A DNA stretch of 64,000 bases from Eukaryota sp. GEM-RC1 (Eukaryota): assembly GCA_040285855.1 (NCBI GenBank), contig JAUFOQ010000016.1, forward strand, positions 868,001 to 932,000. Reading direction: 5' to 3'. Position 1 is the stretch's first letter, and the number at the start of each line of letters is the position of its first letter. Below the pieces are notes generated by a model. The model did no database searches, had not been told where the DNA came from, and saw only the letters and a program-made list of their open reading frames with translations. A program made the position numbers and the translations under genes. Of the stretch, positions 1,322-34,998 are shown piece after piece.

Positions 1322-1601
1322 TAGCACTGTTAATAAGAGACATTTGAATGACGTACAAATTTGAAATGTTCTTGTACAACTTTTCTACAGTCCAAGAGGA
1401 TCAGTAACATTCTTAAAGTTGTTTAATCCAGAAATAACACCTTAAGTAATTATGTACGTCAATCAAAGGTAAAAAGTTCCTTCATAAGAATGAAAATATT
1501 TAAAAAAATGCTAAAAACTAAGATATGTTATTGTTCGGATCTTTTCTTCTTCTTCTTTGGCTCCTGTTTCTTCTTCATCTTGTTAACCAGCTCATCCACA
1601 T

Positions 1602-2564
1602 CTACAGCAGCACTCCCTTTCCTTTCCCCATAATCCTTCTCTTTTCCTCAGGAGCAACAAACTCCAGTTCCCGCGCTTTCCTCTTCCTATCAATCTTCTC
1701 AGCACGATCCTTGGACTCCTTCATTATTCTGTTCTCTTCCCTCTCTTCCTCAGTAAAGAAGTACTCCCCACTTTCCATCTCCATGTCAACCTTACGTGGA
1801 GTTATCTCTGGTGGGAAAGGGGTATAGTCCTTCTCTTTCTTTGCTGCAATCTTTCTACTGATCTTCTTTCTCTGAACATTTCTTTTCTTAAACTTTGGTA
1901 AAAACCGATCCCATGATTCTTCCTTTAAATCAGGATTCTTCATCAACTCTCTTTTAATCATGAGTTCCTTAATGTTATAGACTGGATGGATGTTCTTCAT
2001 AGCATCCAGAACAATACTTTTGACCTGTTTGATGCCTTTAAAAGGCCCTATTGTAGTTACAGTAGTTCCTTGTATATGAATAAAACATCCCGTAAGTATC
2101 TGCAATGCCTTTAAAGTAGCTCCATTAGGTCCTATCAGTCGCTGTCTTCTTCTAACAAAGCGATCCTTGTTCTCCACCATTCCTCCGATTTGGACAACTT
2201 CAGAGTAAACACCGTCTTGAAAGACTTTCTTTGCTTCATAGAGAGGTACTGAGCGAGCTAGACATTTAAGCATGTCTCTTCCACAGATGATGGCGTACGG
2301 ATCCCAGGTTTTCCTGGTAGTAGAGACAGTCATGTAACCGTCTACTAGATTGAGTTCACATGTGAGAGAATGATTTGTGAGAAAGGAAGTGACTTGAGAC
2401 CATATTTCTCTGAGAACTTGTTCCCTATAGGCAGGAAACAGTACTTTAAAGGTTGATTGTTCAGAAAGAGGATGTTTCATGTCGCCTTGTTCGAACTTTT
2501 GGATTTCCCAAGGATCAATGCCTGTAAGATCGGCTTTGTTGTGTTCAGACTTTCTGGAAGGCAT
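1602..2564 (-). CDS. KRR1: KRR1 small-subunit processome KH-domain protein
   Basis: Conserved motifs LFPxYRE, LNLVDGYMTVSTTRKTWDPYAII, RFVRRRQRLIGPNGATLKAL, NIHPVYNIKELMIKREL, WDRFLPKFKKRNV, YTPFPP, ESGEYF. Confidence 0.97.
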   Translation of the reverse strand: MPSRKSEHNKADLTGIDPWEIQKFEQGDMKHPLSEQSTFKVLFPAYREQVLREIWSQVTSFLTNHSLTCELNLVDGYMTVSTTRKTWDPYAIICGRDMLKCLARSVPLYEAKKVFQDGVYSEVVQIGGMVENKDRFVRRRQRLIGPNGATLKALQILTGCFIHIQGTTVTTIGPFKGIKQVKSIVLDAMKNIHPVYNIKELMIKRELMKNPDLKEESWDRFLPKFKKRNVQRKKISRKIAAKKEKDYTPFPPEITPRKVDMEMESGEYFFTEEEREENRIMKESKDRAEKIDRKRKARELEFVAPEEKRRIMGKGKGVLL

Positions 2565-2616
2565 GTATAAGAAGAGTTAGGGATTGAGATTGAAAACACT
2601 TCTGTTGAATTCATTT

Positions 2617-2683
2617 GGGGTGCATACTCCCCAAAATCATTTTACCCCAAAAACTCTTCACCCCATAACCACATATCCCCAAA
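2617..2683. repeat. Putative DNA-transposon terminus (Mutator/Phantom-like) with four spaced CCCCA motifs
   Basis: ggggtgcatactccccaaaatcattttaccccaaaaactcttcaccccataaccacatatccccaaa: starts with a GGGG...CCCC hairpin, then CCCCA motifs at ~15-17 bp spacing. No matching opposite end found. Confidence 0.35.
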
Positions 2684-3061
2684 CTGATTCACTTATACCT
2701 TCTTTGATGGATTCCATACATCGTTTGATATCCAGTGTTGAGCTTCTTTCAAGATAGAGACGTGTTTGCAGGTGTTCGTTCTTAGACTTGTGAACCGTGT
2801 TCAACCATGTCATGAATAAACTCAACGTTGTACAACCATCCTACTACACGTACATCACATTGACATCTTATCTTCCAAAGGAAAACACTAAGGTTTGCTA
2901 CAACTCTGATCGTGTAATACACTGCTGTGTCTTCAGTCATTTTTGACTGCATTTTTCAATTCTATCAGATGCTATCTGGAATGAGACTAAGGTCAACGAC
3001 ATCAAGTCCATGAAGCTTCATTCATCAGAAGACACAAAGACACCAAGTTATAACTACATGT

Positions 3062-3241
3062 ACAACATTTGTAATGACAACATTTGGTGATACAACATTT
3101 GGTGATACAACATTTGTAACTACAACATTTGGTGATACAACATTTGTAACTACAACATTTGGTGATACAACATTTGTAACTACAACATTTGTAACTACAA
3201 CATTTGGTGATGCAACATTTGTAACTACAACATTTGTAATG
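3062..3241. repeat. Tandem array of 12 x 15-bp units (acaacatttggtgat / acaacatttgtaact)
   Basis: Read directly from sequence. Two unit variants are interleaved. Resembles a subterminal repeat array of a DNA transposon. Confidence 0.9.
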
Positions 3242-3891
3242 AAAGTGTCGTATGTGTAATGAATTGTTGACCTAGACATTGATATTTTTTTTAAACACAA
3301 CCAATAAAATATACAACCTCAGTTTATCAAACTTAACTAACACTACTATATCCCCCCATCACCCTCGCAAACATCACAGCCAACGAAAACGACTCCTTAT
3401 ATCCAATCCCACAACAATACTCACACATCACTTCACGAAATTCATCCAATATTCCCAAACAATGTTCATCACACATCACTTCATCATTTAAATCTAATAT
3501 CGACATAACAAAAGTATTGGTCAACGACAACACATTAAAGTACTTGTCCCTATCATTCAAATGAAAACTCAAAATTTCCGCCATCAATAAATTTAAATCT
3601 TTTAACAACTGAAGTTTCAAACTCATATGTGATTGACAGTCTGATGTTGTACCACTTTGGTTCCAATGCAGTGGTACAATATCGTGGACAATTGTAAGAA
3701 CCTTTGTTTCTGTCTGCATGGAAATAGTACGAGTATTGTTCAAGTTGTTTTCAAAGTCTGTCTGAAGACCAAGTGAATTTGGTAATCTGTTGACAGATTC
3801 AGTGACCTCATGTTGTGCACTATTTTTGATAATTTCAAACTAGGTAAATTCAAATTTGGTTTGAGAATATTTCGAGACAATAGATTTGGTC

Positions 3892-5781
3892 TCAATTTAG
3901 GCAAAGTAGTGACTGTTGTTTTTTCAGTTTTGGCACAGGTTTGTTAAAAATTAAATCAGAATTGATGGCACTTACACTTTGATTATTGAGACACTCATCG
4001 TCATCATTCACAACAAAATCATTCATACTAGACGACGCATCGTCATCATCATCAGTTTCATCATCTCCACTATCACTTCCAGAGACAACAACTTCATTAT
4101 CGAATAATTCTAAAACTGAATCAGAAGTGTTATTCAAATTTTCAATTTTTGGAACATCCTTTTCCACCAAATCTTCCTCAATTTCTTCATTGACTGGACC
4201 AAGAACATCAACAGTTTCTGTACTTTGACCAACACTAGAAATAATATTGGACGAAAATTCATCAAAAGTTTTCAACACAGAAGGCCAATTTCTAACAATT
4301 CTTTCATCTTCTAATGGCAAAGGATAAAGAGGTTTAGTAACCGGTCGACAGGGGTGAAAAGTGGAATAATACCACTGATAAAGATCAATTCTTGGTTTGG
4401 GAAATCTTGAAGAAATATCTAAAATTTTAATTGAGTTCCAGTTCTTCACCCTACTCAATGTAACGTACAATTGGGCATATTCCCAAAAATTTAATGAAAC
4501 TTCAATTCCTTCAATTGTTAGACCCTGAGATCTATGGACTGTTATTGCCCAACAAGGACGAAGAGGATATTGCAATCGGGATGCTATAATTACAGGCTTT
4601 TTCTTCTCATTCAACACCTCAATTTCAAATTTAGTCGGAATAATTTTGATTGGTTCTTCGTCCCTCCCGAATCTTACATTAATGAAATGTGAAGTTTCTG
4701 AAAAATCAATAATTTTGCCTTTTGACCCATTTACTAGGCCCAGATCTGGTTTGTTTTGGGTAAACATTACCAAACCCCCGACAACACAGTGAAATTTTTG
4801 TTCGGCAAAATCGTTTAGCCTACTTGATAATTTTTTTACATTTAAATCAACAGCCTTTTCCATTTGTTCCTCATTAGGCTTACCAAATGCCCAACTTTTA
4901 ACAATTTCTGATTTAATTAAGTTTTCATTGAACTTATCGAGGGAATGAAATTCAACATTTTCATTCCCTTGTTCACATAATAATTCAAATTGCTTTAAAT
5001 TTTCGTCGGCGACATCCTTGTTTCTAGCAAATAATTTGGTTGGACTTTCAATATTTTTGGCTAATGACTTATGTTTCAATAAAATATGTTTCATATAGTC
5101 ATCAAAAAGTCCGAGACGTATTTCATTCAAAAAATTATAAAAATTGACATCACCTTGTTGTCGGATACTTCCAGATAATTCAATAAAATTTAAATTCAAG
5201 TCCTTCCAAGACTGTGATGAAAACGTAAAGTCTGAAAGTTGAAGAACAGTCCGTGTGTTTGAATCAGATTTTACAATTGGTGCAAGTTGCAAAAAATCAC
5301 CAAATATTACAACTTGAAGTCCACCAAATGGTAACTGAGACTTCAGTAAATCTTTAAATATATCAGAGGCTCTGTTGAATAATTCAGCAGTCAACATTGA
5401 AATTTCATCAATAACAAGCATTGAATTTCGAGCACTAATAGTTCGTAAAACAGACTTAACACTCGAAGGCATAGAGCGAATGACATCAGATATTGGTTTT
5501 TCATTACGGATAAAATTATAACCAAAGAGAGAGTGTAGTGTTTGACCACCAAAGACAGTGGAAGCAACACCAGTAGTAGCAGTAAAAAAGACATGGCCAT
5601 TGGGTCTCATTAGCTTGGAACCCGCATTAGACCACCACTGTTTAAGACAGTACAGTAGGTAAGACTTGCCCGATCCGGCACCACCAGTAATGAAGAAATT
5701 TCGACGCTTAGAAGGTCTTGCATGAGTAATAGCTTGGAAGACCTGAGCCTGTTCGTCTGTAAGTGTGTTGATAATGGACAT
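3892..5781 (-). CDS. PIF1-family SF1B DNA helicase (probably element-borne)
   Basis: Walker A GGAGSGKS, TATTGVAS, GGQTLHSLFG, LVIDEISML, PFGGLQVVIFGDFLQLAPI, SIRQ, LVNGSKG, QYPLRPCWAITVHRSQGLTI, QLYVTLSRVK. Intact 629-aa ORF with acidic tail. Confidence 0.95.
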   Translation of the reverse strand: MSIINTLTDEQAQVFQAITHARPSKRRNFFITGGAGSGKSYLLYCLKQWWSNAGSKLMRPNGHVFFTATTGVASTVFGGQTLHSLFGYNFIRNEKPISDVIRSMPSSVKSVLRTISARNSMLVIDEISMLTAELFNRASDIFKDLLKSQLPFGGLQVVIFGDFLQLAPIVKSDSNTRTVLQLSDFTFSSQSWKDLNLNFIELSGSIRQQGDVNFYNFLNEIRLGLFDDYMKHILLKHKSLAKNIESPTKLFARNKDVADENLKQFELLCEQGNENVEFHSLDKFNENLIKSEIVKSWAFGKPNEEQMEKAVDLNVKKLSSRLNDFAEQKFHCVVGGLVMFTQNKPDLGLVNGSKGKIIDFSETSHFINVRFGRDEEPIKIIPTKFEIEVLNEKKKPVIIASRLQYPLRPCWAITVHRSQGLTIEGIEVSLNFWEYAQLYVTLSRVKNWNSIKILDISSRFPKPRIDLYQWYYSTFHPCRPVTKPLYPLPLEDERIVRNWPSVLKTFDEFSSNIISSVGQSTETVDVLGPVNEEIEEDLVEKDVPKIENLNNTSDSVLELFDNEVVVSGSDSGDDETDDDDDASSSMNDFVVNDDDECLNNQSVSAINSDLIFNKPVPKLKKQQSLLCLN

Positions 5782-5807
5782 TGAGTGTGTGAAGTGGTGA
5801 TGTTTAA

Positions 5808-6407
5808 GATGCAGATTGTGCAGGGAAACTTGGTGTCACTGGTTCTCATTGGGGTTTAGCCATTATAGACTGTTGTGAAAAGGAATGGATCTTCATTGAT
5901 CCAATGTTAACTACCGTCGATATGAGTAAGTCTATGGTAAAATCAGCTGTAGACATATTATCCGAAGTACTTGTGCCATGGGGGTATGTTTTCCGTTATG
6001 TACCTGTGACTAAAAGTCAGTCTGCTAACGACTGTGGAGTTTATGTCATTGCGTATATTCAAAAATATGTTGAACTTTTTAAAAGACTCATGTATGTTCC
6101 GTCTCTGATGTATATGGAGTCTGATTTGGTCCAAGTGAACATTGAACTTCAAGCAGACATATTTCGTGAAGAAATTCTGGAGGTCTTGTCTCAACAAAGG
6201 ACACTTTATCTACAACAACGTCAAACCACAGTAGCTCCTATTGTACCATCGTTACCCATTCAACCTCCTGCCGGTAAAGAACATCCAACCACTTCAATTC
6301 CTCTCACAGGTTCACGTCTTGCTAGTACTAAAACATCTACTGGTTTAAGCACTAAAAAAGGGAAGCCAAAATTTCAGATGTTCCATCACCACGAGGTTCA
6401 CCTTTAA
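5808..6407 (+). CDS. Ulp1/SENP (C48)-like cysteine protease domain; probable N-terminal module of a longer protein
   Basis: The frame of ORF 5904-6407 is open upstream to 5808 and reads GSHWGLAIIDCCEKEWIFIDPM (catalytic His and Asp), then SQSANDCGVYVIAY (oxyanion Gln and catalytic Cys). No in-frame ATG precedes the His motif. Confidence 0.8.
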   Translation, partial: DADCAGKLGVTGSHWGLAIIDCCEKEWIFIDPMLTTVDMSKSMVKSAVDILSEVLVPWGYVFRYVPVTKSQSANDCGVYVIAYIQKYVELFKRLMYVPSLMYMESDLVQVNIELQADIFREEILEVLSQQRTLYLQQRQTTVAPIVPSLPIQPPAGKEHPTTSIPLTGSRLASTKTSTGLSTKKGKPKFQMFHHHEVHL

Positions 6408-7645
6408 TTCAACGAAATAAATTTAGAACTACCAGCTCCCTTGTTTCAACTGGTGACACTCCAATACGAAAGACCCACCGCCGTATGTCCACATTGGAAT
6501 CATCGGAATTACCACAATCTGAACTATCATCACCATCTGAACTATCATCACCATCTGAACTATCACAATCTGAACTACCACCAAAATCACAGGCCTCCAT
6601 TATGTCGTATCCATCGCCAATTCAAGAAGAAATCCAAAAAATGGAAGTAAATCTACACACTGAGCCTATAGAAGAAGAAATACAAATTCAAGACTTTCTT
6701 AAATCCCCTTTACTTTGGAACAATCTGCCAACTTTTTGTTTAATTCATGTTCAAAGTGATTTTGCCAGTTCAGAAAGAATTAATGGCAAAAATGTTCAAC
6801 TTGTTCAAGATGATGATGACATTGAAACTGTTGAAGGTGAAGCTGAAGATCAATTAGAAGTTAAACGTGATTCTTCTGTTGATCCGATTGTATCAATTTC
6901 CATCCAGATCATTGATCACAATGAATTTAATGAAAAGCATTTATTTTCTCATGGTAATTTTGATACTACAAACTTGGATTTGTGTACTTTACATATTTCA
7001 GATAGTGAATCCAGTATGCTTAAAAACTTCATTTCCTTCATTACTCAACATTGTCCGCGATTGTTTGTGAGTTATGACTTTCACTTAGATACATTTCCCT
7101 TTCTTGTATCACGTTGTCAAGTCCTCAAAATCAATACAACGTTTACTTTTCCAGAATTTAAACCCTATATTCCCTTTTGGTTCAACAAATGGTGTAAGGA
7201 AACAACTTTTGGTCCGTTTTTTAGTCTCGATTTGAATGCTGTATTGAAGAATTTTTATGTCTTTACTGGTGGCCGTTTTTTGGAAAATGTTGTTCAAATT
7301 TTTCTTGAAATGAATAATTTTTCTAAAAATGAAACTGTCAAACGCTTGGAAGAACTTGATCATGACTCTGATCCTGATGAAGTTCAATTGGTCAATAATG
7401 TCCAAAACTTGCATGGCATAATTGACAGTATTAATGTTTTAGTTCCAGACAATCCCAAAGTGAAGGTCGATAAGATTAAAAAGAAATTTGTAAGAAATTT
7501 GGAGAAAGTAAATGAACTTTGGGCCAAGGAATCGACAAAACCGCTATTGTTGATCAACTCAATTCAACAATTGCCTCTGATTGAGTACTTGTTGGCTGAC
7601 CTATTGGATCCCAAAAACAAACATTACGTTCAAAGTCACCAATGA
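6356..7645 (+). CDS. Ser/Pro linker plus degenerate family-B polymerase-type 3'-5' exonuclease (DnaQ-like) domain
   Basis: Frame open from 6356, first ATG at 6485. DPIVSISIQI, SESSMLKNFISFITQHCPRLFVSYDFHLDTFPFLVSRCQVLKI and SLDLNAVLK...LENVVQIFL parallel the PolB exonuclease consensus (DPIxxIS, SExxLLxxFxxxIxxxxPDxxxGYNxxxFDxPYLxxRxxxLxI, IDL...LxxVAxxxL). The ExoI DxE position appears replaced by IHVQS. Confidence 0.6.
   Translation, partial: KREAKISDVPSPRGSPLIQRNKFRTTSSLVSTGDTPIRKTHRRMSTLESSELPQSELSSPSELSSPSELSQSELPPKSQASIMSYPSPIQEEIQKMEVNLHTEPIEEEIQIQDFLKSPLLWNNLPTFCLIHVQSDFASSERINGKNVQLVQDDDDIETVEGEAEDQLEVKRDSSVDPIVSISIQIIDHNEFNEKHLFSHGNFDTTNLDLCTLHISDSESSMLKNFISFITQHCPRLFVSYDFHLDTFPFLVSRCQVLKINTTFTFPEFKPYIPFWFNKWCKETTFGPFFSLDLNAVLKNFYVFTGGRFLENVVQIFLEMNNFSKNETVKRLEELDHDSDPDEVQLVNNVQNLHGIIDSINVLVPDNPKVKVDKIKKKFVRNLEKVNELWAKESTKPLLLINSIQQLPLIEYLLADLLDPKNKHYVQSHQ
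6518..6581 (+). repeat. Coding tandem repeat (tctgaactatcatcacca; SELSSP-like)
   Basis: Four imperfect units encoding SELSSPSELSSPSELSQSELPP in the linker. Confidence 0.8.
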
Positions 7646-10522
7646 AAGTGGTTATGAAACGACTAGACAATGTTGTATCCAAAGTGAAGGTTAAATTTAT
7701 TGAATCTCGTGTTAAGAGAGCTCATCAAGTACGAGTCCGTAGTACTCTCTTTTTAAAACATTTTTTTGTTCATAATTTTCAACATTCTGGTATTTTAGGT
7801 TACATTCAGAAGTTACTGCCTGCTACTGTTCCAAATGTAACTGTTAAGGAAGAAATGAATTCTGATACAGATGAGTCAACTGAAGAAGAAACAGATGAAC
7901 ATTCAGAGTCTATCGATGCTACTGCTCCTCCCGTTAAATTAGAAAATATTGAAAATGCGAGTGGTGAACCTGAACCTGACCTTTGGACTAAAATTCAAAC
8001 TTCCAAAATTGAATTGCCAGACTGGAAGAATTTTTTTACGTTGAAATCAATGGAACAAGTGTTATCTATGATGACGATTAGGGACTACAAACTTGTAAAC
8101 AATCAGAATCATATTAGGACTGTACAAGAATCTTTAGAAAACATAATTTCTAACACAAATGATGACTCAACTCAAAATCAGTTTGCTCAACATTTCTTGA
8201 TGCATTACATTCCTCGTTTAGAACTAGCTGCTCGATCTGTTGGACTTGATAGGATTGTGTTTCCCAGTAGCCTCAATTTATCTCCTATATTGCATTACAT
8301 GGCTACTGAAATTATAACGAATTACAAGACTAACATGAGTGAACACTTTCACGAATATGTTTTTCAAGTATTTAATTTGGTTACCCTGAAAGAAGAAAGA
8401 CTTAACAAGCTTACTGATAAGAATCAACGACAAGAGTTGTGTACAAAGCTTAATGAAGTCAGACAGTTGATCATTAATGGGGAAATTTCAAAAATTAATT
8501 TTCAAGATGTTGAAGTGTTTCCTGATCCCAATTCTAGACTGAGTTTACTATTTTTTAACTATTTGTTTACTTTTTTTGAAGGTAAAATGGAAAAAACAAT
8601 CTATTATGCTGAAAAAGTAGATCCTTTGAAATTCTTAAGTCATGCAGTGTATTTGAAACGTCTTGTTGAAGACTCTTGTACTGGTGTTACTGCCAATAGT
8701 CCTTTTCCTCTGACAAAATCATTGATTCCTAATCATATCAGATTGGATACTACATGGTTTAAAAAAGTTTATGCATCAGAAATTAAAGGTAGCTTTGATG
8801 ACGTTCGAAAAGATATTTGGCACTCAGTTTTGAAACCAAAGTGTCTTCCAAAGTCATTGTCTCATGACTTCAAATACAGTTCTATTTCTACAGATGGAGT
8901 TAGCTGTAATTTAATGATGATGCGGAAAGATCTGCTTGATGCGAGAGGAAATCCTCATAAGAAGGTGAAAGCAGTTGACTACACAGCTACTGAAAGGTAC
9001 ATTGATTCTTTGAGTTCCACAGAAATTCAAAACTTAAATTTGAAATCCAGAAAAATTTTTGCTATTGATCCTAATCAGCATGATTTGATGTATTGTGCTT
9101 CTTTAAAATCTAAGGAGGAAAAGGAAATCGAAGGTTTCGATACATCAGCCAAAATCAGAAGAAGAAAGATTTCTCCAAAATCATCAAAGAAAAAAGGAAG
9201 CTTGAAAAAAATTAAAAAAGGAATTGAAGGATTGGAAAGACGCACCTACTATTGACAAACCATCAACTGTCAAGTTGAAAAATCGTGATGATTGGAAAGT
9301 ATTCAGATACACTGCTGGGGAGCGCAAGGCAGATATCAACAAGTCTCCATGGAAAAGAAAAAAACAAGGAAGGAAAGAAAAAGAGCTAAGAGAAAGAAGA
9401 GGAAGTTGGAGAAGAAAATAAGACGATACAATCTCCACCGTTTATCTGAATCCGAACGGTTACAACAATATTCTACTCAATTTATTCACATTCCAGATGG
9501 CAGACGCATTGACATAAATGGGCAACAAATTTTAGATCAATGGGGCTCTAACTCGCCAGGTAGTAAATCTTGTGAATTGACTCAGTATTCTGCTTTTGTT
9601 CTTGGTAAAGAAATTACCTGCTCTTTACTACGATCACCCACTACTGATCAAAAAAACTACTGAAGGAATTTACGAAGAAAAGTGGTTTAGAAGGAATCGT
9701 CTCACACAGTATTCAAGAAAGGAACGAAGTGAGAAAAACATGCTTCACAGATTTACTCTCCAGTTTGGAAACCCAGATGAAGTCGTTGTTGGGTATGGAG
9801 ACTGGAACGACACTGCTTTTCGTCGAAGAAGAGGTAAAGCATCGACTGTAAAAGGTGCTTCAATTCGGAAATTATTGAGAAAATTTGGATTTAAAGTGTT
9901 CCTAGTTGATGAATTTAAGACCAGCAAATGTTGCTCTGCATGTGTTTCCAGAAATGACGAAGGTATCTGTTCCAATCCTGAAAGGATCAAAGTCACTGAT
10001 CCTCATTGGAAGAAGAAGTTACAGAAGGAAGAGAAAGAATTAAAAAAGGAAATTATGGAACACAATCAATTAGACAATATTGTGGAGCGTAACTTTGATG
10101 ATGAATGGACCAAACAGTTGACATTATCGAAAGAAAGATTGAAGAGCAAAAAAGTCTCACCATGGGGCTTAGTTGAATGTGCCAAATGTCATGTCCTCTG
10201 GAATAGAGACTTCAATTCTGCTATCAATATTTACAATATTGTAAATGGAACCATTCAAGGTCAAGGTAGACCTGCCATCCTCGAGAGACCAAAATCTCAA
10301 ACAACACCTGTCGTGGATGGCGGGAATACAGATCAGATTCCAAAGAAAAAGACTGTGAGTAAGGGTAAGGGTAAAGCAAAGCGTCCTCTAACAAAAGTCA
10401 GAGGTCCTAACAAGTGTGGTATATGTTTTCAACCTGGACATAACAGAGCAACTTGTCCAAATAAGCCTAAGAAAGATGTACCCAAGGACTCACATGTAAA
10501 CCAGAAAGATCAGGAATCTTGA
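7642..10522 (+). CDS. Fanzor1 (eukaryotic TnpB-like RNA-guided RuvC endonuclease), ~959 aa after correcting three A-run indels, with C-terminal CCHC zinc knuckle
   Basis: RuvC-I IFAIDPNQHDLMYC (D at 9067), FRYT motif, VVVGYGDW (9797), VDEFKTSKCCSAC (E at 9911, first CxxC), ECAKCHVLWNRDFNSAINI (second CxxC, RuvC-III D at 10208), GRPAILER, and SISTDGVSCNL upstream. Zinc knuckle CGICFQPGHNRATC. The four ORF pieces (7642-9255, 9224-9421, 9292-9663, 9596-10522) join at A-runs. Confidence 0.9.
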
Positions 10523-10530
10523 ATCTATGA

Positions 10531-10693
10531 AGTTAGCTCGTCTTAAAAGACTTTGCGAATGAGGACTTTGTCAACTGTGGTTTATCTCATGAAAATGTGA
10601 AGGGTTATGCCCTTATGCATTTGGAATGAAATTCACAGTTACAAAAAAATGTAAAAATACATTGTTTGCTGAAGCCTTTTGTTAGTGTGACTG
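10531..10693 (+). ncRNA. Candidate Fanzor omegaRNA scaffold
   Basis: Begins 9 nt after the Fanzor stop. Hairpin gtct-taaa-agac lies within a stem closing ~10531-10567. Long imperfect hairpin 10567-10645 (tttgt-c-aactgtg ... aaggg-ttatg-ccctt ... cacagtt-acaaa). Hairpin aatgta-aaaa-tacatt at 10648-10663. Boundaries are inferred. Confidence 0.55.
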
Positions 10694-10873
10694 TATGTGT
10701 TCGCCTTGTGCTCTAATGATTGTTATGTACTGCACTTATCTATTTGTTCAACATTTAAACAGCTTGTATGTAAATCCCTGGTTGTAAACCATTTGAGTCC
10801 AGATATACAGTACATTCTTTCGTCATTTGTTATGTATAAAATTTGTCCGTAGATATGTTTATGACCAGACACG

Positions 10874-10942
10874 AAAACTGGATATAGCGCAAAACTGGAT
10901 ATAGCGTCGACCATAAAATGACGCTATATCCAGGGTTGACTG
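10874..10942. mobile_element. Solo pogo-like terminal inverted repeat with internal repeats
   Basis: 10922-10942 reverse-complements to cagtcaaccctggatatagcg (18/21 to the 1241 MITE TIR) and is followed by TA. Two aaaactggatatagcg copies lie just inside. Confidence 0.6.
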
Positions 10943-11369
10943 TATGTCAGACTTAAAAATACCATATCATTACGTCGTAAATAACAGTTTTGAAAATTGT
11001 TTTGGTCTGGAATAATGCAATACTCAACAAAACTACACAACAGAATCAAAAGCAGATGCAATTAATCGAGCTTGAGTGAGTTCAAGCACTTGGAGAGTAA
11101 ATGGTTTTTTTGTCACGAAATTATACACCTATTGTTTGGCTAATACATGATTGAATTGCACTCATTTAAGGAGTGGTGGCCTTATAGAGTCTGGAAAGAA
11201 CTAAATCTAGGAACAGCCTTCTCAATTGATATACGATTTCAGCTCAAGATTTATTTAGGTCATGAACTTATAAATTCATCAACAACCACAGAAACGGAAA
11301 CTTCAGATAGATACAATACTCACAAAGAAAAGCAACACATTTCACCACATATTCTATAAATAAAAGAAC

Positions 11370-13517
11370 CTATTTCTTCACGACTCGATACTTTTTCTTA
11401 CAGTCGCTCCATTCCCATCCTTCAATCAAATTTTGTAAGCAATCACCTAATTCTTCAATGTGAACATACACTTGCTCTCCAGAATCACGTTCTCTAAGCG
11501 TAATCTTGTCGGTTTTCAATGATTGTTGATCAATTGTAACAGCATATGGTACACCAATCTCATCAGCTCTAGCATAACGTTTTCCAATTGACTGATTGTT
11601 ATCAATTCTATAAGGGATCTCGTCATGAGATAAAACAGAACAAATCTCAGCAGTAAAGTCCTTATAAGCTTGTTGGCTGAACAATGGCATCACAACTACT
11701 TTACAGGGAGCAATCTCAGCAGGGAATCGGAGTACTGAACGGTCCAATTCACGACCACCTCCAATCTTTCTAACGTACATTGAATGCTCGAGAACAGCGT
11801 AAACAATTCGATCAATACCAAATGAAGGTTCAATGACACGAGGTAAGAACTTACGAACAAATTGCTTCTCCTCAACCTGTTTAAACTCAATATCTTCACT
11901 TGCAACAGTAATAGTGGTATCTTCGAGTTCAACGACTAATTGTCCATCAGTAGACATTTGATCAGCAAGATCATGGAGCTCTTCCTCAGTCTTGGATTCA
12001 AAGTATTGTTGTAATAAAACTAAATCTTTCTTGAACTTTTTACCTGCAACCTTTTTGTTGAATTCAAACGAAAAGAAGTTCTTAATAATAGGTTTTTCAA
12101 GATCTTTTGTTACAGAAAGATCAGTTTTCGAAGCTTCTGAATGACACTTCAAATCATAACAAGACCTATCAGCAATTCCAACAATCTCAGTCCAACCACT
12201 AGACAACAGAACCTCTGCATCCCAACAATCCTCAGCATAATGAGCCATTTGAGAGCTTAAATGCTGTCTGAAACGGATCTTTTCTGGGTTGATACCCAAG
12301 ACTTCCAAGAAAACCTGTACTTTCCCAATGAAATAAGCCATGACTTCAGTTTGTACAAATCCATGCGAAAGAGCATCATCGAGGATCATATCGATACCCT
12401 CAGCATCAGCTCCGTCTTGTTCCTGAAGGTCTCTGGGCAACCAAATTATTTGAGTCTCGGCAAAATCTAAATATTCCTGATGTGTGGTATCCTCTGGGTC
12501 AATAAAGTACTCAATCTCAGCCATTGAGAACTCTCGTAGTCTAATTAAACCAGCTCTAGGAGAGATTTCGTTTCTAAAAGCAGTACCAATCTGAGCAACT
12601 CCAAAGGGAAGAGACTTGTTGTTGAACTCAAAGAGACGTTGGAAGTTGACAAAGATTCCTTGTGCAGTTTCAGGTCTTAGAAAACCTTTGGATGATCCCA
12701 AGGGACCAATGAAGGTACTGAACATGAGATTCAATGGAACTGGATCAGAAAGAAGGTTTCCGTTGGGAGACAGGAGTTCGTATTTGTTAATTAGTTCGGC
12801 CATTTGAATAGCGTCGCAAGCATCAGCAGTGGAAATAACATGGGAGATTGTTTTATGTTCATCAGCAGGTAAATCTTTGTTCTCTGCCAGTGTCTCCAAA
12901 TGAGCGATCAAAAGTTGATCAGCACGATAACATTCCTTGGTTACAGAGTCTCTTACCATGAGATCGGAGAACTTCTGCACGTGACCAGAGGCTTCAAAGA
13001 CAGCTTCGGGGGTGAGAGCGGTACAAGCGATTTCAAAGACGTTGGGCTGAGTATTGATGAAGCACTTGACCCACATGTTGATGATGTTTCTTTTTACACC
13101 AGCTAAGACAGGGCCATAATCATAGAGACCTGAAACTCCACCATAGATTTCAAAGGCAGGAGTGAAGAGGAAACGACGCTTGATGACGTTGTCAAGGACG
13201 ATCTTAAGTTCTTCGTCCGAAAGATCGGGTACCAGTTCTTCAGCCTTGGGTGAAGGAATAGAGGCAGGGGGTTGGGACGTGGAGGATACTTGTTTGATAG
13301 GTGTCGATTTGGGTTTTTCAGCTGCAGCTGCAAGTGGAGCTTGAGTAGGAGCTGCTACATGGGCGGGAATCTCTACTTGTCTGCTAGGATCCTTCTTGAG
13401 CGCAGTATACTCCTTTTTAAGAGTCTTGATCTTCAACTCCAGATCTGAATCTCCAGGAGTAATAAACAAAGCAGCCTCCAGATCCTCAATCTCATTTTTA
13501 AGTTGTTTGAGACTCAT
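11370..13517 (-). CDS. GARS: Glycyl-tRNA synthetase (eukaryotic/archaeal alpha2 type)
   Basis: FEIYGGVSGLYDYGP, ASGHVQKFSD, LRPETAQGIF, FRNEISPRAGLIRLREFSMAEIEYF, RFRQH..MAHYAEDCWD, EIVGIADR, VIEPSFGIDRI, IGKRYARADEIGVPY. First ATG at 13517. Confidence 0.97.
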   Translation of the reverse strand: MSLKQLKNEIEDLEAALFITPGDSDLELKIKTLKKEYTALKKDPSRQVEIPAHVAAPTQAPLAAAAEKPKSTPIKQVSSTSQPPASIPSPKAEELVPDLSDEELKIVLDNVIKRRFLFTPAFEIYGGVSGLYDYGPVLAGVKRNIINMWVKCFINTQPNVFEIACTALTPEAVFEASGHVQKFSDLMVRDSVTKECYRADQLLIAHLETLAENKDLPADEHKTISHVISTADACDAIQMAELINKYELLSPNGNLLSDPVPLNLMFSTFIGPLGSSKGFLRPETAQGIFVNFQRLFEFNNKSLPFGVAQIGTAFRNEISPRAGLIRLREFSMAEIEYFIDPEDTTHQEYLDFAETQIIWLPRDLQEQDGADAEGIDMILDDALSHGFVQTEVMAYFIGKVQVFLEVLGINPEKIRFRQHLSSQMAHYAEDCWDAEVLLSSGWTEIVGIADRSCYDLKCHSEASKTDLSVTKDLEKPIIKNFFSFEFNKKVAGKKFKKDLVLLQQYFESKTEEELHDLADQMSTDGQLVVELEDTTITVASEDIEFKQVEEKQFVRKFLPRVIEPSFGIDRIVYAVLEHSMYVRKIGGGRELDRSVLRFPAEIAPCKVVVMPLFSQQAYKDFTAEICSVLSHDEIPYRIDNNQSIGKRYARADEIGVPYAVTIDQQSLKTDKITLRERDSGEQVYVHIEELGDCLQNLIEGWEWSDCKKKYRVVKK

Positions 13518-15182
13518 TAACACAGGAGGAAAAGTATAATTAACAAATATAGACACTACTACTAGTAGTAGCAGATCTTATACAACAACATTAAACACAC
13601 ATTAGGCACACCCTTCACTATGTTTGTATTGGAACCTTGCTTGTATTGGGGTCTTTCAAATCAAGTTCAATGTTAATAATTACATTATCAGATGCGAAGC
13701 CCGACATCGTAATTCTATATAAATAGGGTCAATCAATAGTCTCTATTATATTCAGTCGATTGTGTTACGTAAATCGTAACAAGATAAGTACCAAAATATG
13801 TCATCAGTTTCTTGATCAATCAGTCTTCCCATTAATCACAGCAATTTTCGACCAAAATTTAAAAAGAGATTCAATTTTCGACCAATGCGCACTAGTGTTT
13901 TCAGAACAAATCAAACTGATTTACAAGTGGAAAACTGCATCTTTCTGCACATTTCCAGAGCTCTCCTAATTCTGATATTGCCAACATATCCGTCAAAAAT
14001 TCAAACAATTTCTAGATATTCATATTTCGAACAACCTTCGCCGGAGTGGTAATTGAGATTTCTATAGCTCACCTTGGTTTTATATCTTAAGTTATATGAC
14101 GTTGAATTGAATGCGCTGATCATCACAAATTTAATGTCCAATGGTCAACAAAGTAAATCCGTTATTTATTAGACTTATTTCATTAGGTGAAATAATATTA
14201 ATATGATACTTCACACTCGTCTTTATCTTCAGATTCAATTCTCCTTGTTTTGTCTATTGGTTAATGATTCTCCCGTATTTTGTACACTGCTTGCAGAAAC
14301 ACAATCAAGGAGCAATTCTTGTTCGACCTCTTCCGGTAGAATTGTGTGCTAATTTGTCTTCTGTTTAAAAAAAATAAGTTTATGGCATAAATTAATGAAA
14401 TAGTCACTACTAGTGTTAAAAGATATCATACCCTACATAAACAATGTAGTCTTGAACCACCACGATACAATTTGTCCAGTATACGATTCAAATACTTTGG
14501 GAAAATTCTGTAGAAAGAAAAAAACAATGCGATTGCGCCAAAGAGTCTGACGAAAAATTTTCCTTTTACCCCGAAATTCTCAGTAGTGTAAAAGAAGAAA
14601 ACAAACTGGAATTCCGTTTCTTCATTGTGTCAGAATAGGTATCCATCTTTCTTTTTTCGGCTTTGGATATATGACCTTCGGAGTCAGTTGAAACTGAATT
14701 CAAATACACTTTTGCAAAAGGATCAACAGTAGTAAAATCTATCACTTTTTGACAAGAATCAAGATACGGAACAATGAGATCACCTCGTCGAAAATTGGTA
14801 ATGTTATCACTTTAAACTACAAGGGGCCCCCAAATCTACAGAATTGTTATTCCCATATAACTTGGACAAAATCCCGTCAAAATAGCGGTACTTCAACCTG
14901 AATAACGAAAACGCATGTCAATTCCACCACCAAAATGATCTGTTCAATTTCTTCCCAAAATCTAAACACAATTTTTCGAAAATATTCAAAAACCCTTTCA
15001 AAATATGACGTTTGTTTATAGACAACAAACCAACATTCTATTGCTTAATAGTATTATCATACGCTTAATGATTTTGTTCATGACATTTTGGACTTGATTC
15101 AATCGTTAAGAAAATTATTGTTATTGATTTTGATATCTATTCCTCAACTTCTATTTCTGTCTGTACCTTATTCGAGTAACCC

Positions 15183-19257: not shown

Positions 19258-20704
19258 ATGTCCTCTCTTCATGATCTTCTATCTATCTGTCTGGATCTAG
19301 ATGAATCAACACTACTGAATATTAACCAACAAGACTCCTTCAATCTGTCGTCCATTGATTCAGCTGGTAACTCACTTCTTCATTATCTCTCCTTGGAAGG
19401 TTCCACTGAAGCCCTGGAATTACTTTTCCGCCATGTCAACGATCTGTCTTCCATCACTTCCATGACAAATAGTCTTGGTCAATCTCCTCTTCATTTAGCA
19501 AGTGCTTCTGGTTCTCTCTGTTGTGTGACCCTTCTATTATCTCACAATGTTCCCATAGACCTCAGTGACAGTAAGGGATTCCTTCCCATAACGTATGCTC
19601 TACTCGCAAACCACTTTGATATAGCTCGTCTTCTCTTTAATCATCTTCCAACCATCCTCTACAAACCCTTTCCGCTACTTCACCACGTTATTGAATTAGG
19701 CCTGATCTCTTCTCTTGAATTCCTTTTATCTCTTCCTGGTGTGAACATCAACTGTTTGAATGACCTCTCCCAAACTCCTCTTCATGCTGCTGTCATATCT
19801 AATCAATCTGAAATGATTGACATTCTTTTACAGAGAAAGTGTGTTTGTGAATCATTTGACCAACTTGGAATTTTCCCCCTCTTCTCTGCTATTTCCTTCG
19901 GATACTTAGACACAGCACTTAAATTACTACTCAAATGTCAACAAAGTCTTTTTTTAGTAACTAACAGCGGTTATTCTGTACTACATGCGATATCCTTCCT
20001 CGACTACGAAACTTTAAATTCTGATACGTTTTTTAAAATCGCTGCTCTGCTTCCTCTAATCATTCAAAACTATTTCGATGCACAAAATGATTCATGTGGA
20101 ATATCGTCTTTTATTAATGCAGTGGATTTAGAAAATCAAATGTCTCCATTATTGTTCTCAATATTTTGTGCTAATTACACAGTTTCATGTTTATTATTGG
20201 ATCTTTTCGGTGATTTGTTTATTCTAGATACTGTTTGTAAAGGAAATCGGAATATTTTTCATTTGCTGACTGATTCTGATCATGATTTAAAACTTTCACT
20301 TCGCTTACTTAATATTCTATCCCAAAAATCGTCTGATTTTATTTTTAAGATTTTCAGTCTACATGATTCTTTAGATAGAACCCCTTTGATGACGTATTTC
20401 CTCTGTGGATATTCAGACATCTTGTCATTGATTCTAGATTTTCTGAAAAATACCATTGAATCGGAAAATGTTGAAGTTTTGCTTGAAACTTTGAAACTAG
20501 AACACGTGTAAGTATGTTGAATTGATGATCTTAATTGCACGTATTTTTAGCCCCGTGTGTTTATCGAATGATTTCATGTTCAGAAATCTTGCTGAAGATT
20601 CATGTTTTTTTGCTTTCATTGAAAGGTTTCCACTAAGGCTGTTAAGAAGTAAAGATAAGATCACTGGAACTTGGGTCAGATCAAGATTCGGTCTTCGCTG
20701 CTAG
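19258..20704 (+). CDS. Ankyrin-repeat protein with a 43-nt intron (20508-20550); 3' end interrupted by a hAT element
   Basis: Ankyrin motifs GNSLLHY, GQSPLHLA, GFLPITYA, QTPLHAAV. Removing gtaagt...ttttag joins ...LEHV to PVCLSNDF in frame. Confidence 0.8.
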
Positions 20705-21059
20705 TGTATGTGCTCTATTTGAAAATCATGATATCCTTGATCCATTAATATGTATCAAAATGTTCTGCACTAGCTAAATATTCTGGGACCTGTGGATTAT
20801 ACAATCTTCTAGTGGTGAGAATGAAACGGTTTACAAGTTTATGACGCTCAAGCTCTTGTCTGTCTGAATACATTGTTAGAATTTGGTTTTGAATTGAAAG
20901 ATTTATAATTTAAATATTTTAACATTTTTTGAGTTCAACCATAACAAACAACTTAACAGCAACTAGTTCAGCTATCAAACACAACAGTTCTTCCATCGGG
21001 TCAAAGATCAGGTCAAGACTTTGACCTGTCATGTGACCTGATAGCTTTTAACGGCCTTA
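20634..21059. mobile_element. Non-autonomous hAT-like element (same family as 32730-33232, opposite orientation)
   Basis: TIRs taaggctgttaa / ttaacggcctta. Perfect 8-bp TSD gtttccac (20626-20633, 21060-21067). Interior is homologous to the reverse complement of 32730-33232. Confidence 0.9.
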
Positions 21060-21739: not shown

Positions 21740-22970
21740 CTAATAAAAGGCAAAGACAGAAGAGCCCACAAAAATAGTGCAAAATATTAGCATAAATTTT
21801 CGAAAATTTCGAAATGTTTCTGTAGATGCACTTGCTTCTGTTTCGATAAGCATTTGTTCATGATCTCTTGCGGAGGAATTAAAGAGTTTGCCCACGTCAA
21901 CAGTCGTTTCAACATGAGAATTAGTCCGATTTTGATGAGGAGCAGTAATTGGAGGAGCAGAAATCTCATAGGTACCGCCACTAAAGCAAGATCTCAGTGC
22001 ATCAAGCAGAAGAGTGGCATTAGGGCGATTAATCGGGTTAACTGAAGTTGTGGACTGAATCAGAGGTCTGAACTTTTCTGGAATGGCAGAAATATCAATA
22101 AGAGCAGCTCCTTTCCGTTCAAATCTGGCCATTTGCAGAGCTTGGAGTGGTTCTCGTACAGAGGAAGGATCTTGATTGGATAATAATCCCCAAAGAAGAA
22201 CACCAAAAGAGAATATGTCTCCTGCTGGTGTTGGTTTATCCGTGTGACCAAGTAGAACCTCTGGAGGCATGTAGGCCATGGTTCCCAAGAAGCTGATGGT
22301 TACACTAGTATTTGAAGCTCGAACATCATCAAAATCAGCTAGTTTGGCTCTATTTATCCTCTGATGATTGATGTCTAAAAGAACATTTCCTGCAGATATA
22401 TCTCTGTGAACAAAGTTGTTACGATGTAGAAGAGACAACCCCTGAACTACATCCTTAGCAATTGCAGCAACGTCTTCTGAAGAGAACTTCTGTCGCTTGT
22501 TGAATAGATCTTGGATACTGGCTGAAAGATGTTCACAGACAATTCCAGGGGGGATTTTTGGTAACGCCATAGATTCGAACCAATTTATCAGGGAAATCCA
22601 GACTTTTGATGAGATGGTACTGATTGTTGGCTTTGTTCTGGATATCAGGAAGTCCTGGAAGCTGCCTGTACTTCTTCCATATAACACGATTACCAGAGAA
22701 AGTTCCTGTCAGAAGATCTGAAGAATGTGTAGATAAGAAGTGCTTCTCATCCTGAATCTCAGACTCTGTAATGACTTTTGGTTGTAAGAGTTGGGTAAGA
22801 AGCTCGTTTCTCTTCAGCTCATAATTGTCAGGAATGCTCTGATTACACACAGGACAATGTCGTCTAACTTTGAGAAAAGCAGATATACATGTAAGACAGA
22901 AGGAATGCTGACAGGGAAGGGTCACTGGATCGTTGAGAACTCCTTGATGGATTGGACAAGCGACAGTCAT
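21740..22970 (-). CDS. RING finger - protein kinase - C-terminal TM protein, copy 1 (one extra G at ~22550)
   Basis: C3HC4-like CPIH..LPCQHSFCLTC..CPVC, then HRDISAGN, DFDD, GTMAYMPPE, DIFSFG and a hydrophobic tail. The G6 run here versus G5 in the intact paralogue explains the split ORFs. Confidence 0.88.
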
Positions 22971-23327
22971 ATCTAGGTTCTTAATTGGAATCTGATTCAT
23001 GAAATCATTCTGCATGTACTTTCCAGTAGATTATCCGTCTAAACTGTCCACAGCGGACTTTACTGTTAGAGTTACCATCAGAAGTCTGTAATTCATAGAA
23101 CTATCTTCCTTAGAACAATTAACAAAGGGGTCCTGAGATTGAGGGATAAGGGAGATTTGAGTAGTTGGTAAAACGTAACTTATTCCAGATAGACAAATGA
23201 CTTAGTCATGCTATTATTGATTTGTTTCTACAAATTCAGAAAATTGTGGCAATGTTGCGTTTTTGGTTACCGAATAAATCTTATTATACTAACTCCACAC
23301 GTTCACTGACCAACCTTCATTATGAAC

Positions 23328-25390
23328 CAGGGGTGGGAAAACAATATTGCAATAAATATAATTATTTTTGAGCCACAAAATAAATATTGCAATTCTGAAA
23401 TAGTGCCAATAAGTATGGCAATTATTCGACCAATATCGCAATATCGCAATATCGCAATATCGCAACAATATGGATCACATTATGTATTTATTGTAAAAAA
23501 CTCACATATTCTATTGTTCATCATCATCAGAAATATCCGATTATTTGAATTCGATTCAACAAGAGTTGGATAAGATTAAAGTTCTTGAAATTGAAAAACA
23601 TTTAAAATTCTTCATGCTCAAAATTTGATATTCTGGCAAAATTGCTCATCTTTTAAGGTCCCTTGCTCCTGAGTTATCGTATGATTTCTGTAGAGCTTTT
23701 AACAAAATTCGCACAGACTTTCTTTCTTTTCTTGTTCAAGTCAACCCCAATATTTTTAAATAACCACACATTTTCCAGTCCATATCTGGGAGGTTTGGGA
23801 TTTACATCTTCTAAATGGTGGACTAAAGCAGCTTTTATTGGTGGTGGAAAGAATTTTGTATTCGAGTTTTGTAATCGATATCCATCAAGAACTTCTCTTC
23901 TTGAAAGTACTAGCAGCTTTTATCTTAATCATCTCCGTGGTGAAATAGGAAATCTTTCTCCTGAGCTATGGTCAACTTGCTTTCCTGTTGATATCAAAGA
24001 AATTCCATGTCGAAACATTTTGTCTTTAAAGTTTGCTTTAAAAAAGCTACAAAATCATTAATTAAAATATTTTGAAAGTTTAGATTTTACAGTCCGTCTT
24101 AGCTCGGCTAAGGAAAAAAATCCAGCTTTCGCTAATTTTTTAATTGATTTAAAGGAGAGTTCTGCTGTGGCATTAATGAATCAAATTCCACAAGTATACG
24201 GTTTGTTATTAAATTATCATCAATGGACCACCACAATGAGATTTCGTTGTTATTTATGGCCATATAATTTGCCAAATGATCTTCAATGTAGTTGTGAAAA
24301 ACAATTAACGTTTTCTCATCTGTTAAGTTGTAATCGCTACATAACTTATCGAACGTGTATGCATGATGCTGTAAGAGATCAAATACATGGGATGTGTAAG
24401 TCTTACAAAATTGAGTCATTTGTTGAACCACTTCTAAGATCTTTAGAACCAAGTAATAATTGTAATGTCGAAAAACAGAACCAATTTTTTGGTAAACGGA
24501 GAGCAGATGTTGTTGTCCCTTCTTCTTCAGACACATTGTTTGTTGGTTTGTTGTTGATGTAGTGTCAGTGGATGTTTGTAAAAAGACATCTTTAAAGAAC
24601 GCTTCATCTGAAACTTCTCCTTTAGACATTTCTGAACAGGCCAAACAGGACAAGAACAAAAAACTATTGATGGCTTTAAAACATGTAAAACATGCTGAGT
24701 ACGAATTATGCCCTTTTGCTGTTTCAATTTACGGTCGTTTAGGACAAAGTGCATTGAATTTTTTAAACGATTTCGGAAAAATCGTAAAAAATAGGATGAA
24801 CAAACGTTTTGATCATTATAAGTTATGGTTAAATCGGATCGTTTTTACTGTTTTTAAAACAGTTCCCTTAATCATCTCCAAAGCTTTATTAGCAGTGAGT
24901 TCGTTTTATGAGGACAAAGCTGTTGTAAGGTTTGATAGCGACGGGTGTTGTTTTAATGATATCAAATTCTAGTTGTTTGATCTATTACATTTACAATAAA
25001 ACTATTAAAAAGAAATATCCGAAATAATCTCAATACCATTATCTACATCTTCGAATTTGTGTTTTGTACTGCTCATGATATGTCATGATATGTCATGATA
25101 TGAGGAATTTACATTGTGCTTCTAGTTAACACTCGAACTGAGCTCAAATGACAGACATTATGACAATAAAACAACTAGAAATCATTACCGATAAAACAAC
25201 TCTCTTTATATTGAATCACTTAAGACAACAAACCTGGTTTTGGAAATCCAAATGGTGATGCAAAACAACGAGATGAACAACTCAAAGTATATTGGCAAAT
25301 ATTGCAATAATTAACCGGTGTAACAATAAATATTGCTCCACCTCAAGGAGCGAAAATAAATATCGGAGCAATATTGTTTTCCCATTCCTG
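23328..25390. mobile_element. Non-autonomous hAT-like element carrying a nested retrotransposon (same family as 61428-62054)
   Basis: TIRs caggggtgggaaaacaatattgc / gcaatattgttttcccattcctg. Perfect TSD ttatgaac (23320-23327, 25391-25398). Confidence 0.92.
23541..25010 (+). mobile_element. 5'-truncated RLE-type (CRE-like) non-LTR retrotransposon
   Basis: 12-bp TSD agaaatatccga (23529-23540, 25011-25022). Frameshifted ORF with PYLGGLG, CSC..TFSHLLSC..HDAVRD, RRADVVV..VDV and PFAVSIYGRLG (zinc knuckle plus restriction-like endonuclease). Ends with aataaa and a short A tail. Confidence 0.88.
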
Positions 25391-30443: not shown

Positions 30444-30960
30444 AAAAAAACGGGGTTTATGATCAATCAGTGAAATAAATGCATCTGCAGAAGTTAATAA
30501 CTAACAGACACTAACTAAAGTATCTAAACTATGATCCTTCTGTTTATCACCGAACAACTTACCGAAAATAGAATTAAAACATCTATGCATTGAAAGAAAC
30601 AACGCAAACGTTTACCTACTCAACCAAAAATATTCATTGAAAACTTTACCGTACTCAGAACACAATTTACCAAAGGAAGTTAAAAACCGTTGTGCAGCGT
30701 CCAATATTACCAAATATCGACATCGCAAAAGGTTGAAACACAAAAGAATTGCACCTGTCAACATTCAATTGGTTAATTAAGTGACAGTACTTTGTAATTT
30801 TTCCATTTTCAGCCACTTCAAGAGCAGAAAAGTCATCATCAAAAAATTTGGAAATTGATCTTGAATTACAAGGAGTAAAAAGAAAGTTATTGGAGAGGAA
30901 GGTTGTCATTTTCCCTCTTTCAAGCATTGCTTGTGTATTTTGATTCAATTGTAAACCGTT
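30444..30960 (-). mobile_element. 3' fragment of an RLE-type non-LTR retrotransposon (family shared with 63549-64000)
   Basis: AENGKITKY..FQPFAMSIFGNIG. Nucleotide similarity to 63549-64000 includes the 3' UTR. 5' limit approximate. Confidence 0.8.
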
Positions 30961-34733: not shown

Positions 34734-34998
34734 GGGCAATTGATTGGAAACTGCTCCAATGCAATTGACCCACTTCTTTCCAAAGGTCTTTCATCAACAG
34801 ATTATCTGTATTAAGTGGCCACAGCTGTGTGTATCCAATGGTTTATGGCCGTTTCGGTGTGATTTCTCCTGTTTTCCTTCATTTTAAGATACAAGTCCAT
34901 TTCTGATTTCTGATAATTGAGACAATTATACATGTATTCATCTCCAGTATATCCTCGATGTAGTGCTGCCCTCGATTTAAGGTCTGCCAGTGGGACGG

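Follow-up and report, generated by a model that had tools for sequence, protein, structure and literature searches.

Restorative homing has been shown for the OMEGA nucleases TnpB and IscB and proposed for Fanzor (PMC13565253), Fanzor omegaRNAs are described as occupying a 3′ position (PMC10432273 and PMC13565253), and PIF1 helicases promote break-induced replication (BIR) (PMC8047440 and 10.1101/554550). The role of Fanzor in the transposons that carry it has not been settled. Here, we consider a stretch of 64,000 nucleotides from Eukaryota sp. GEM-RC1 (contig JAUFOQ010000016.1 of assembly GCA_040285855.1, positions 868,001 to 932,000, forward strand), called the window below, in which positions 2617 to 10942 had been read, from the letters alone, as a mobile or virus-derived island with a PIF1 helicase lying head to head with a protease, an exonuclease, a Fanzor1 gene, and an omegaRNA. 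We slightly favor a reading in which the island holds a broken, 5′-truncated copy of a mobile polyprotein family that would live by RNA-guided cutting plus copying repair, with PIF1 probably helping.

The sequence-only reading counted the protease, the exonuclease, and Fanzor as separate genes. Judging from aligned relatives, they are very probably one frameshifted polyprotein gene: relatives run through every one of the five frame breaks (~6354, 7613, ~9205, ~9350, and ~9650), which are crossed, in that order, by 15, 21, 27, 11, and 13 of 102 models. Eight relatives cross both the Ulp1/exonuclease and the exonuclease/Fanzor breaks, and P0207, P0214, and P0215 extend unbroken from mid-Fanzor to the stop codon, a region that lies in pieces in the window, where Fanzor itself is split into four frame pieces; P0006, among the crossing models, appears spliced. 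The coupling proposed earlier would thus be tighter than claimed, a single polypeptide that in relatives is led by a 2A motif.

That the Fanzor unit is mobile, as had been suggested, is borne out by its dispersal. At least 102 models match positions 5800 to 10530, of which 101 are named Eukaryota sp. GEM-RC1 and lie on 12 contigs; these counts are lower bounds, with at most 15 members per cluster represented. Identity is at least 76% for 52 of the models, 50 to 76% for 25, and under 50% for the other 25, and the relatives sort into about four subfamilies, which we label A to D. Individual queries return smaller sets: the N-terminal Fanzor open reading frame (ORF) has 14 matches among 7,997 scored candidates (10 named GEM-RC1), the C-terminal Fanzor query has 7 at E ≤ 1e-25, and the exonuclease query has 9 in 1.84 billion representatives. 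A second organism, Eukaryota sp. TZLM3-RCL, carries unbroken 2A-exonuclease-Fanzor ORFs of 1473 and 1479 amino acids (aa), with no Ulp1 found by Pfam in the one scanned, and in a quick tree 13 GEM-RC1 and TZLM3-RCL rows group against 3 metagenomic Fanzor1 rows with 99% support, long branches being flagged. Metagenome and viral scans returned no match to the polyprotein and no viral loci, which speaks against the virus-derived module of the sequence-only reading. We also observed that subfamily B (relatives P0193, P0013, P0014, and P0196 inspected) has a second, degenerate Ulp1 copy, that P0014 resembles a B/A recombinant, and that P0196 fuses its leader straight to the linker that follows Ulp1.

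The assignment to Fanzor1 held up well. Both large Fanzor pieces have Fanzor1 structures as their best PDB matches (8gkh, 9cer, and 9cf0; SpuFz at 6.5e-13 and 3.1e-7), and the nearest likeness to Fanzor1 includes the N-terminal REC extension. The TNB zinc finger is matched by Pfam at 5.9e-9 with its cysteines present, and the RuvC residues D 9067, E 9911, and D 10208 are in place within the motifs AIDPN (9061), DEFKTSKC (9908), and WNRD (ending at 10208), a criterion taken from PMC13565253. A C-terminal CCHC-type knuckle at 10415 to 10456 scores below the Pfam cutoff. By these motifs, Fanzor is predicted to be an RNA-guided nuclease. The structured noncoding tail described earlier is also recovered, since positions 10550 to 10659 fold better than shuffled sequence (z of about -3.4), and only 1 of 38 background windows reached -2.5; this candidate omegaRNA has no match at the gathering score in Rfam and, like the published omegaRNAs, lies 3′ of Fanzor. 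Downstream of its scaffold, a guide would be expected.

The exonuclease-like fold was likewise correctly called, with a Pfam match to DNA_pol_B_exo1 and a predicted structure (predicted local distance difference test [pLDDT] score, 61) that matches family-B polymerase exonuclease domains; Foldseek places Pol delta first in the PDB at 2e-7, on par with viral PolB in BFVD at 3e-7, and a full-length relative matches yeast Pol delta by sequence at 1e-4. In relatives, the domain is in frame with Ulp1 and Fanzor. The acidic residues of Exo I, II, and III are kept in P0198 and P0253 of TZLM3-RCL; in four GEM-RC1-type rows, including the window, DEDDy acidic residues are lost, differently. Because 21 alignment columns are invariant, the fold appears to have been kept after catalytic loss, and the dead exonuclease of GEM-RC1 is likely to have been retained as a DNA-binding module. 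This proposal fits results with engineered MmeFz2, which was impaired by fusion to TREX1, TREX2, or T5 and improved by DNA-binding domains (PMC12923547).

Can the protease still be called intact? The Ulp1-like call stood in part: the C48 match and the triad (His 5847, Asp 5898, and Cys 6033) are present, but the N-terminal half, found in all 9 relatives checked, is absent. Homology to relative P0247 begins at 5832, at its residue 254, and the missing leader, 2A motif, and Ulp1 N-terminal half (137 to 290 residues) are nowhere in the 64 kb (best E, 0.14); therefore, the window copy has no start codon, and no ATG, before the catalytic His. No target duplication was found around 5832. With the PIF1 start codon at 5781, only ~50 bp from the break point, the head-to-head contact is, on this sequence reading, a deletion or insertion junction and not two intact genes, and the functional layout first envisaged finds no support in this copy. 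In the relatives, the polyprotein is led by a predicted 2A/StopGo motif: D(V/I)ExN(P/L)GP occurs near the N terminus of 15 fetched proteins (12 from GEM-RC1 and 3 from TZLM3-RCL), with the canonical core D(V/I)ExNPGP in 14 of the 15, preceded by DLTADG or by an L-rich stretch. A 2A with upstream DLTxDG is a described class (PMC12846837). The window has no 2A motif in any of its six frames.

The frame breaks themselves admit several origins. All eight (five in the polyprotein and three in the PIF1 tail, one uncertain) lie at or adjoin homopolymer runs, although runs of at least 5 occupy only 5 to 6% of these genes, and the aligned frames of the polyprotein and the PIF1 tail hold no nonsense codons. 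The absence of stops says little, because only 21 residues in 1,895 well-covered columns are private to the window. We consider uncorrected homopolymer errors in repeats a plausible and somewhat favored source of the breaks, because the assembly of the named relatives was built from Nanopore R9.4 reads with Illumina correction and is 48% repetitive (PMC11316075). Homopolymer runs are equally natural slippage sites, so true decay may also be compatible, and the break near 9350 may be an error, an inherited lesion, or a programmed -1 frameshift. The stretch from 9349 to 9364 is A rich, and two pairs of models regain frame there through different single-base differences. As assembled, the Fanzor frame of the window copy is not open, with five breaks and a missing 5′ end; because of the 5′ truncation, this copy is disabled with or without real frame breaks.

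PIF1 was described as intact, which is correct for the helicase core but not for the C-terminal tail, where relatives P0176 and P0182 continue in frame at 86 to 93% identity and which weakly resembles the subfamily-B tail (pairwise E, 0.008). The best 5 of 1,675 PIF1 matches are GEM-RC1 clusters of 19, 5, 2, 1, and 4 members at 96, 97, 56, 45, and 44% identity, and the sixth match stands at 35%. Because there are 31 close models (24 at 90 to 99% and 7 at ~44 to 56%), of which the 25 named ones are spread over 9 GEM-RC1 contigs, PIF1 is a dispersed multicopy family and not a single-copy host gene; the mobile origin that had been claimed for it is supported. A quick tree of 61 rows (the window, 4 named relatives, 46 of 115 other listed matches, and 11 of 13 viral loci, with L007 and L011 left out, the latter for stops) gives the window family a long separate branch, loosely among giant-virus PIF1s with support of only 89.

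Does the neighboring PIF1 belong to the same element as the Fanzor polyprotein? We think this rather probable. In the one comparison made, subfamilies A and B are 51% identical in PIF1 and 52% identical in the polyprotein, and the subfamily-A clusters are alike in size (24 for PIF1 and 26 for the Fanzor C terminus). Several observations weigh against this linkage and against the broader reading of the locus. Of 25 PIF1 locus tags, only 3 have one of the 101 Fanzor tags at a distance of 3 tags or less, where 1.2 were expected (p = 0.12), and the 120 matches listed out of 1,675 include no PIF1 from TZLM3-RCL and none that matches Fanzor subfamily C or D; in so repeat-rich a genome, about one chance PIF1-Fanzor neighbor is estimated. 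The relatives are annotated protein models, in which predicted introns may be hidden, and no GEM-RC1 model covers the whole polyprotein; 12 models have the break near 9350 in common, and relatives also stop at recurring runs. The full-length structure model is poor (pLDDT, 49.8), that of exonuclease-Fanzor is of low confidence, and no significant terminal repeats, target duplication, or guide target surrounds this single copy, the only guide matches inside the window being A rich. The tag measure, however, says little either way, because its positive control failed: none of the 101 Fanzor tags adjoins another, though pieces of one copy should. Linkage is favored even after selection, because chance would give about one neighbor per genome and linkage about 25, both figures being estimates.

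The most serious alternative, possible although less probable, is that two separate mobile families have come together here, one a Fanzor element encoding the polyprotein and the other a PIF1 element unrelated to it, joined by deletion or by insertion of a 5′-truncated Fanzor copy just upstream of PIF1. The 22 of 25 PIF1 tags with no listed Fanzor tag within 3, the lack of a PIF1 partner for the TZLM3-RCL polyprotein among the matches listed, and a junction that cuts through Ulp1 are all what such a meeting would leave; 5′-truncated, 3′-intact Fanzor copies are published for CRe-1, 2, and 3 (PMC3627910), and nearly half of the genome of the named relatives is repetitive (48%; PMC11316075). Set against this are the powerless tag measure, the parallel divergence and copy number of PIF1 and the polyprotein, and the junction itself, where no duplication flanks 5832 and the missing Ulp1 half does not lie on the far side of PIF1; for the latter reason, a simple nested insertion of PIF1 is excluded.

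Returning to a polyprotein element that probably includes PIF1, we posit that it would persist by having sites that lack it cut under RNA guidance and then repaired by copying. SUMO takes part in silencing and in anti-recombination. In the proposed sequence of events, the 2A motif would free the leader, so that the polyprotein begins at a fixed residue; Fanzor would bind the structured 3′ RNA and cleave DNA matching the right flank; and the break would be repaired from an element copy over a tract of at least 8 kb, with PIF1 driving long D-loop synthesis. The exonuclease domain could trim or hold the cut ends, being presumably active in the TZLM3-RCL lineage and a likely DNA-binding module here, while Ulp1 might remove SUMO from factors that act in silencing or against recombination. 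New insertions may depend on an enzyme that was encoded in the deleted middle or that acts in trans. A bolder version, which we regard as doubtful, dispenses with such an enzyme: a transposase-free, RNA-guided self-copying element in which Fanzor would cut sites that match the guide, the element's own PIF1 would support BIR-like copying of the entire element into the cut, the fused exonuclease would handle ends, and the SUMO protease would counter silencing. Invasion from one end only would account for copies whose 3′ ends are intact and whose 5′ ends are truncated, and for the missing terminal repeats.

Older categories of element account for the locus poorly. A Helitron-type rolling-circle element that no longer has its HUH Rep and in which Ulp1 and Fanzor are cargo is very unlikely: Helitrons are known to carry Fanzor1 (PMC3627910) and Ulp1 domains (PMC11417382), the left end has a hairpin and a tandem array, and neither terminal inverted repeats nor a target duplication was found, but no HUH Rep is fused to PIF1 and Helitron_like_N has no Pfam match, all subfamily-A PIF1 models with an N terminus begin at one Met with nothing upstream, and PIF1 is far nearer to cellular PIF1 structures in the PDB (1.5e-41) than to Helraiser (1.3e-21). 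It is equally improbable that the locus is what remains of a Polinton-like element or an endogenous DNA virus. Polintons and their relatives do encode a Ulp1-family protease, a family-B polymerase, and superfamily 1 (SF1) helicases (PMC11161782), 2A is virus-like, the exonuclease is about equally similar to viral PolB and to Pol delta, and PIF1 sits loosely among giant-virus sequences; against these stand the lack of any capsid protein, packaging ATPase, integrase, or pPolB/polymerase palm in the 64-kb window, the absence of viral loci for the polyprotein, and the absence of polyprotein-like neighbors at all 13 viral PIF1 loci. That PIF1 is a resident cellular gene beside which the Fanzor unit alone inserted, as its best PDB matches to cellular PIF1 and its position next to KRR1 might suggest, is largely refuted by its 24 members at 90 to 99% and 7 at ~44 to 56% identity on 9 contigs, its long separate branch, and its identity of only 32% to the sole TZLM1-RC PIF1 match.

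Features of the island in the 64-kb window, in order of position
Feature	Positions	Strand	Basis
Candidate left terminal region (GGGG/CCCC hairpin and CCCCAAA repeats)	2614..2683	.	Sequence; tandem-repeat search
Tandem array, 12 x 15 bp, downstream of PIF1	3061..3240	.	Tandem-repeat search
PIF1 C-terminal tail, out of frame	3333..3919	-	Breaks at ~3919 and ~3822, possibly 3352
PIF1-family helicase, core motifs intact	3892..5781	-	Pfam, 1.4e-32
Junction from PIF1 ATG to mid-Ulp1, ~50 bp	5782..5832	.	Homology to P0247 from 5832
Ulp1/SENP-type (C48) protease, C-terminal half	5832..6353	+	Pfam Peptidase_C48, 1.8e-5, profile positions 93-211 of 217
Ser/Pro-rich linker, then family-B polymerase 3′-5′ exonuclease domain	6354..7613	+	Pfam DNA_pol_B_exo1, 4.2e-8
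Fanzor1	7613..10522	+	PDB matches, read-through relatives, motifs; breaks at ~9205, ~9350, ~9650
Candidate omegaRNA scaffold, long multistem hairpin	10565..10645	+	Folding z of -2.7 to -3.4
MITE-like unit, TA-CAGTC terminus	10874..10944	-	~70% alike to 1239-1323

The setting of the island was largely as described. It lies between KRR1 (1602 to 2576, minus strand) and the glycyl-tRNA synthetase gene GARS (11370 to 13577, minus strand), and among 42 window ORFs scanned with Pfam, there were no matches to transposase, Rep, recombinase, integrase, or capsid families, in line with the earlier failure to recognize an HUH Rep, an intact DDE transposase, or a recombinase; the window copy that lacks a DDE transposase is also without the deleted middle part. 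The AT richness noted before is weak. The island has 35.5% GC, compared with 41% for KRR1 and GARS and 37.5% for the remainder of the window, where 8.3-kb slices range from 35.3 to 40.3%; GC at third codon positions (GC3) is 0.26 to 0.34 in the island pieces and 0.29 to 0.49 in 18 host ORFs, with 4 of 5 pieces below every host ORF. The composition of the island thus differs only mildly from its surroundings. Near the C terminus, KRR1 possibly extends into another frame (1531 to 1650, minus strand), which was not confirmed, and a frameshift in the KRR1 tail, taken as a control for assembly error, was unsupported.

The repeat arrays reported at the left are present, namely the 12 x 15-bp array and CCCCAAA repeats at 2629 to 2683 with G tracts on the minus strand. 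An imperfect inverted repeat between 2602 to 2626 and the 3′ end of the candidate RNA was rejected (p = 0.45), and no inverted repeat bounding a PIF1-only element was found. The right boundary at 10942 did not survive: its TA-CAGTC terminus belongs to a unit, presumably a miniature inverted-repeat transposable element (MITE), whose likeness to positions 1239 to 1323, beyond KRR1, was matched by none of 1,000 shuffles. The unit at 10874 to 10944 probably inserted separately and gave rise to the proposed right end. Its relative, which we take to be MITE-like as well, is a self-contained 85-bp palindromic unit with TA-CAGTC ends, and the two, the only such units in the window, bracket KRR1 plus the island. 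KRR1 as cargo between them is unlikely, the left unit being self-contained and the motifs of the two differing.

Elsewhere in the window, a ~1-kb element at 45481 to 46521 with CAGGGCTGTC terminal inverted repeats is flanked by an 8-bp duplication and contains subterminal arrays of 30/60 bp; we assume it to be hAT-like. A short ORF at 14566 to 14811 (minus strand) has a motif that we take to resemble the restriction-like endonuclease end of a non-LTR retrotransposon, with no Pfam support. A RING-finger/kinase gene pair (21743 to 23030 and 33474 to 34790) is 95% identical, and one copy is split where a run of G differs by one base. Unclassified dispersed repeats at 76 to 91% identity pair 23861-24617 with 31423-32137, 30445-30866 with 63549-63969, 25105-25375 with 61744-62013, and 20684-21059 with 32730-33124.

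What does this locus add? The sequence-only reading did not recognize the combination as described, and no Fanzor polyprotein with 2A, Ulp1, and exonuclease was found in the literature searched, which covers main texts outside subscription journals; supplements of the Fanzor surveys may hold similar fusions. Term searches of the main texts of PMC3627910, PMC10711439, PMC10530073, PMC10432273, and PMC13565253 found no natural exonuclease, protease, or 2A fusion, and the search turned up no paper on Fanzor in metamonads. Within that literature, Fanzor fused to a SUMO-type protease and a proofreading-type domain appears as a new Fanzor1 architecture, a variant among Fanzor1 elements. With it, the range of Fanzor and of 2A recoding comes to include free-living metamonads (anaerobic protists), and at least 101 gene models annotated merely as hypothetical are placed in the polyprotein family. 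Fusion to end-processing and SUMO-removing domains, perhaps with a recombination helicase, points to repair steering, which the family makes testable.

The nearest described relatives are the Fanzor1 OMEGA systems (SpuFz1, GtFz1, and PpFz1; PDB 8gkh, 9cer, and 9cf0; PMC10432273 and PMC3627910), which share with the window family the RuvC triad with its Glu six residues ahead of the zinc finger, the REC extension, a structured 3′ noncoding tail, and many dispersed copies. Neither has a transposase inside, and none was found for Spu-1 and other Fanzor loci (PMC10432273). Unlike those systems, Fanzor here forms the C-terminal portion of a ~1,500- to 1,800-aa polyprotein, in a family with 2A, Ulp1, exonuclease, and CCHC knuckle, and terminal repeats were not found around the window copy. 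The Fanzor-bearing Helitron2 elements CRe-1, 2, and 3 (PMC3627910) also have Fanzor copies that are 3′ intact, 5′ truncated, and internally deleted and that lack terminal inverted repeats; the window, in contrast, shows no Helitron-type ends or RepHel, and its PIF1 is free-standing and not Helraiser-like. Non-LTR retrotransposons with 2A (Ingi, L1Tc, L2, and CR1; PMC3708506) are likewise mobile elements whose long ORF carries this motif, but they differ in that here there is no reverse transcriptase or APE domain and the product is a Fanzor polyprotein. With Polintons, Polinton-like viruses, and Tlr1 (PMC11161782), the locus shares a Ulp1-family protease, part of a family-B polymerase, and an SF1 helicase, whereas only the exonuclease domain of the polymerase is present, capsid, ATPase, and integrase are lacking, and Fanzor is added. 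Engineered fusions (PMC12923547) likewise attach an exonuclease or DNA-binding module to Fanzor; the window family does so naturally, and its unbroken relatives of 1473 and 1479 aa, in which every exonuclease and RuvC residue is kept, are candidates for a natural exonuclease-Fanzor nuclease.

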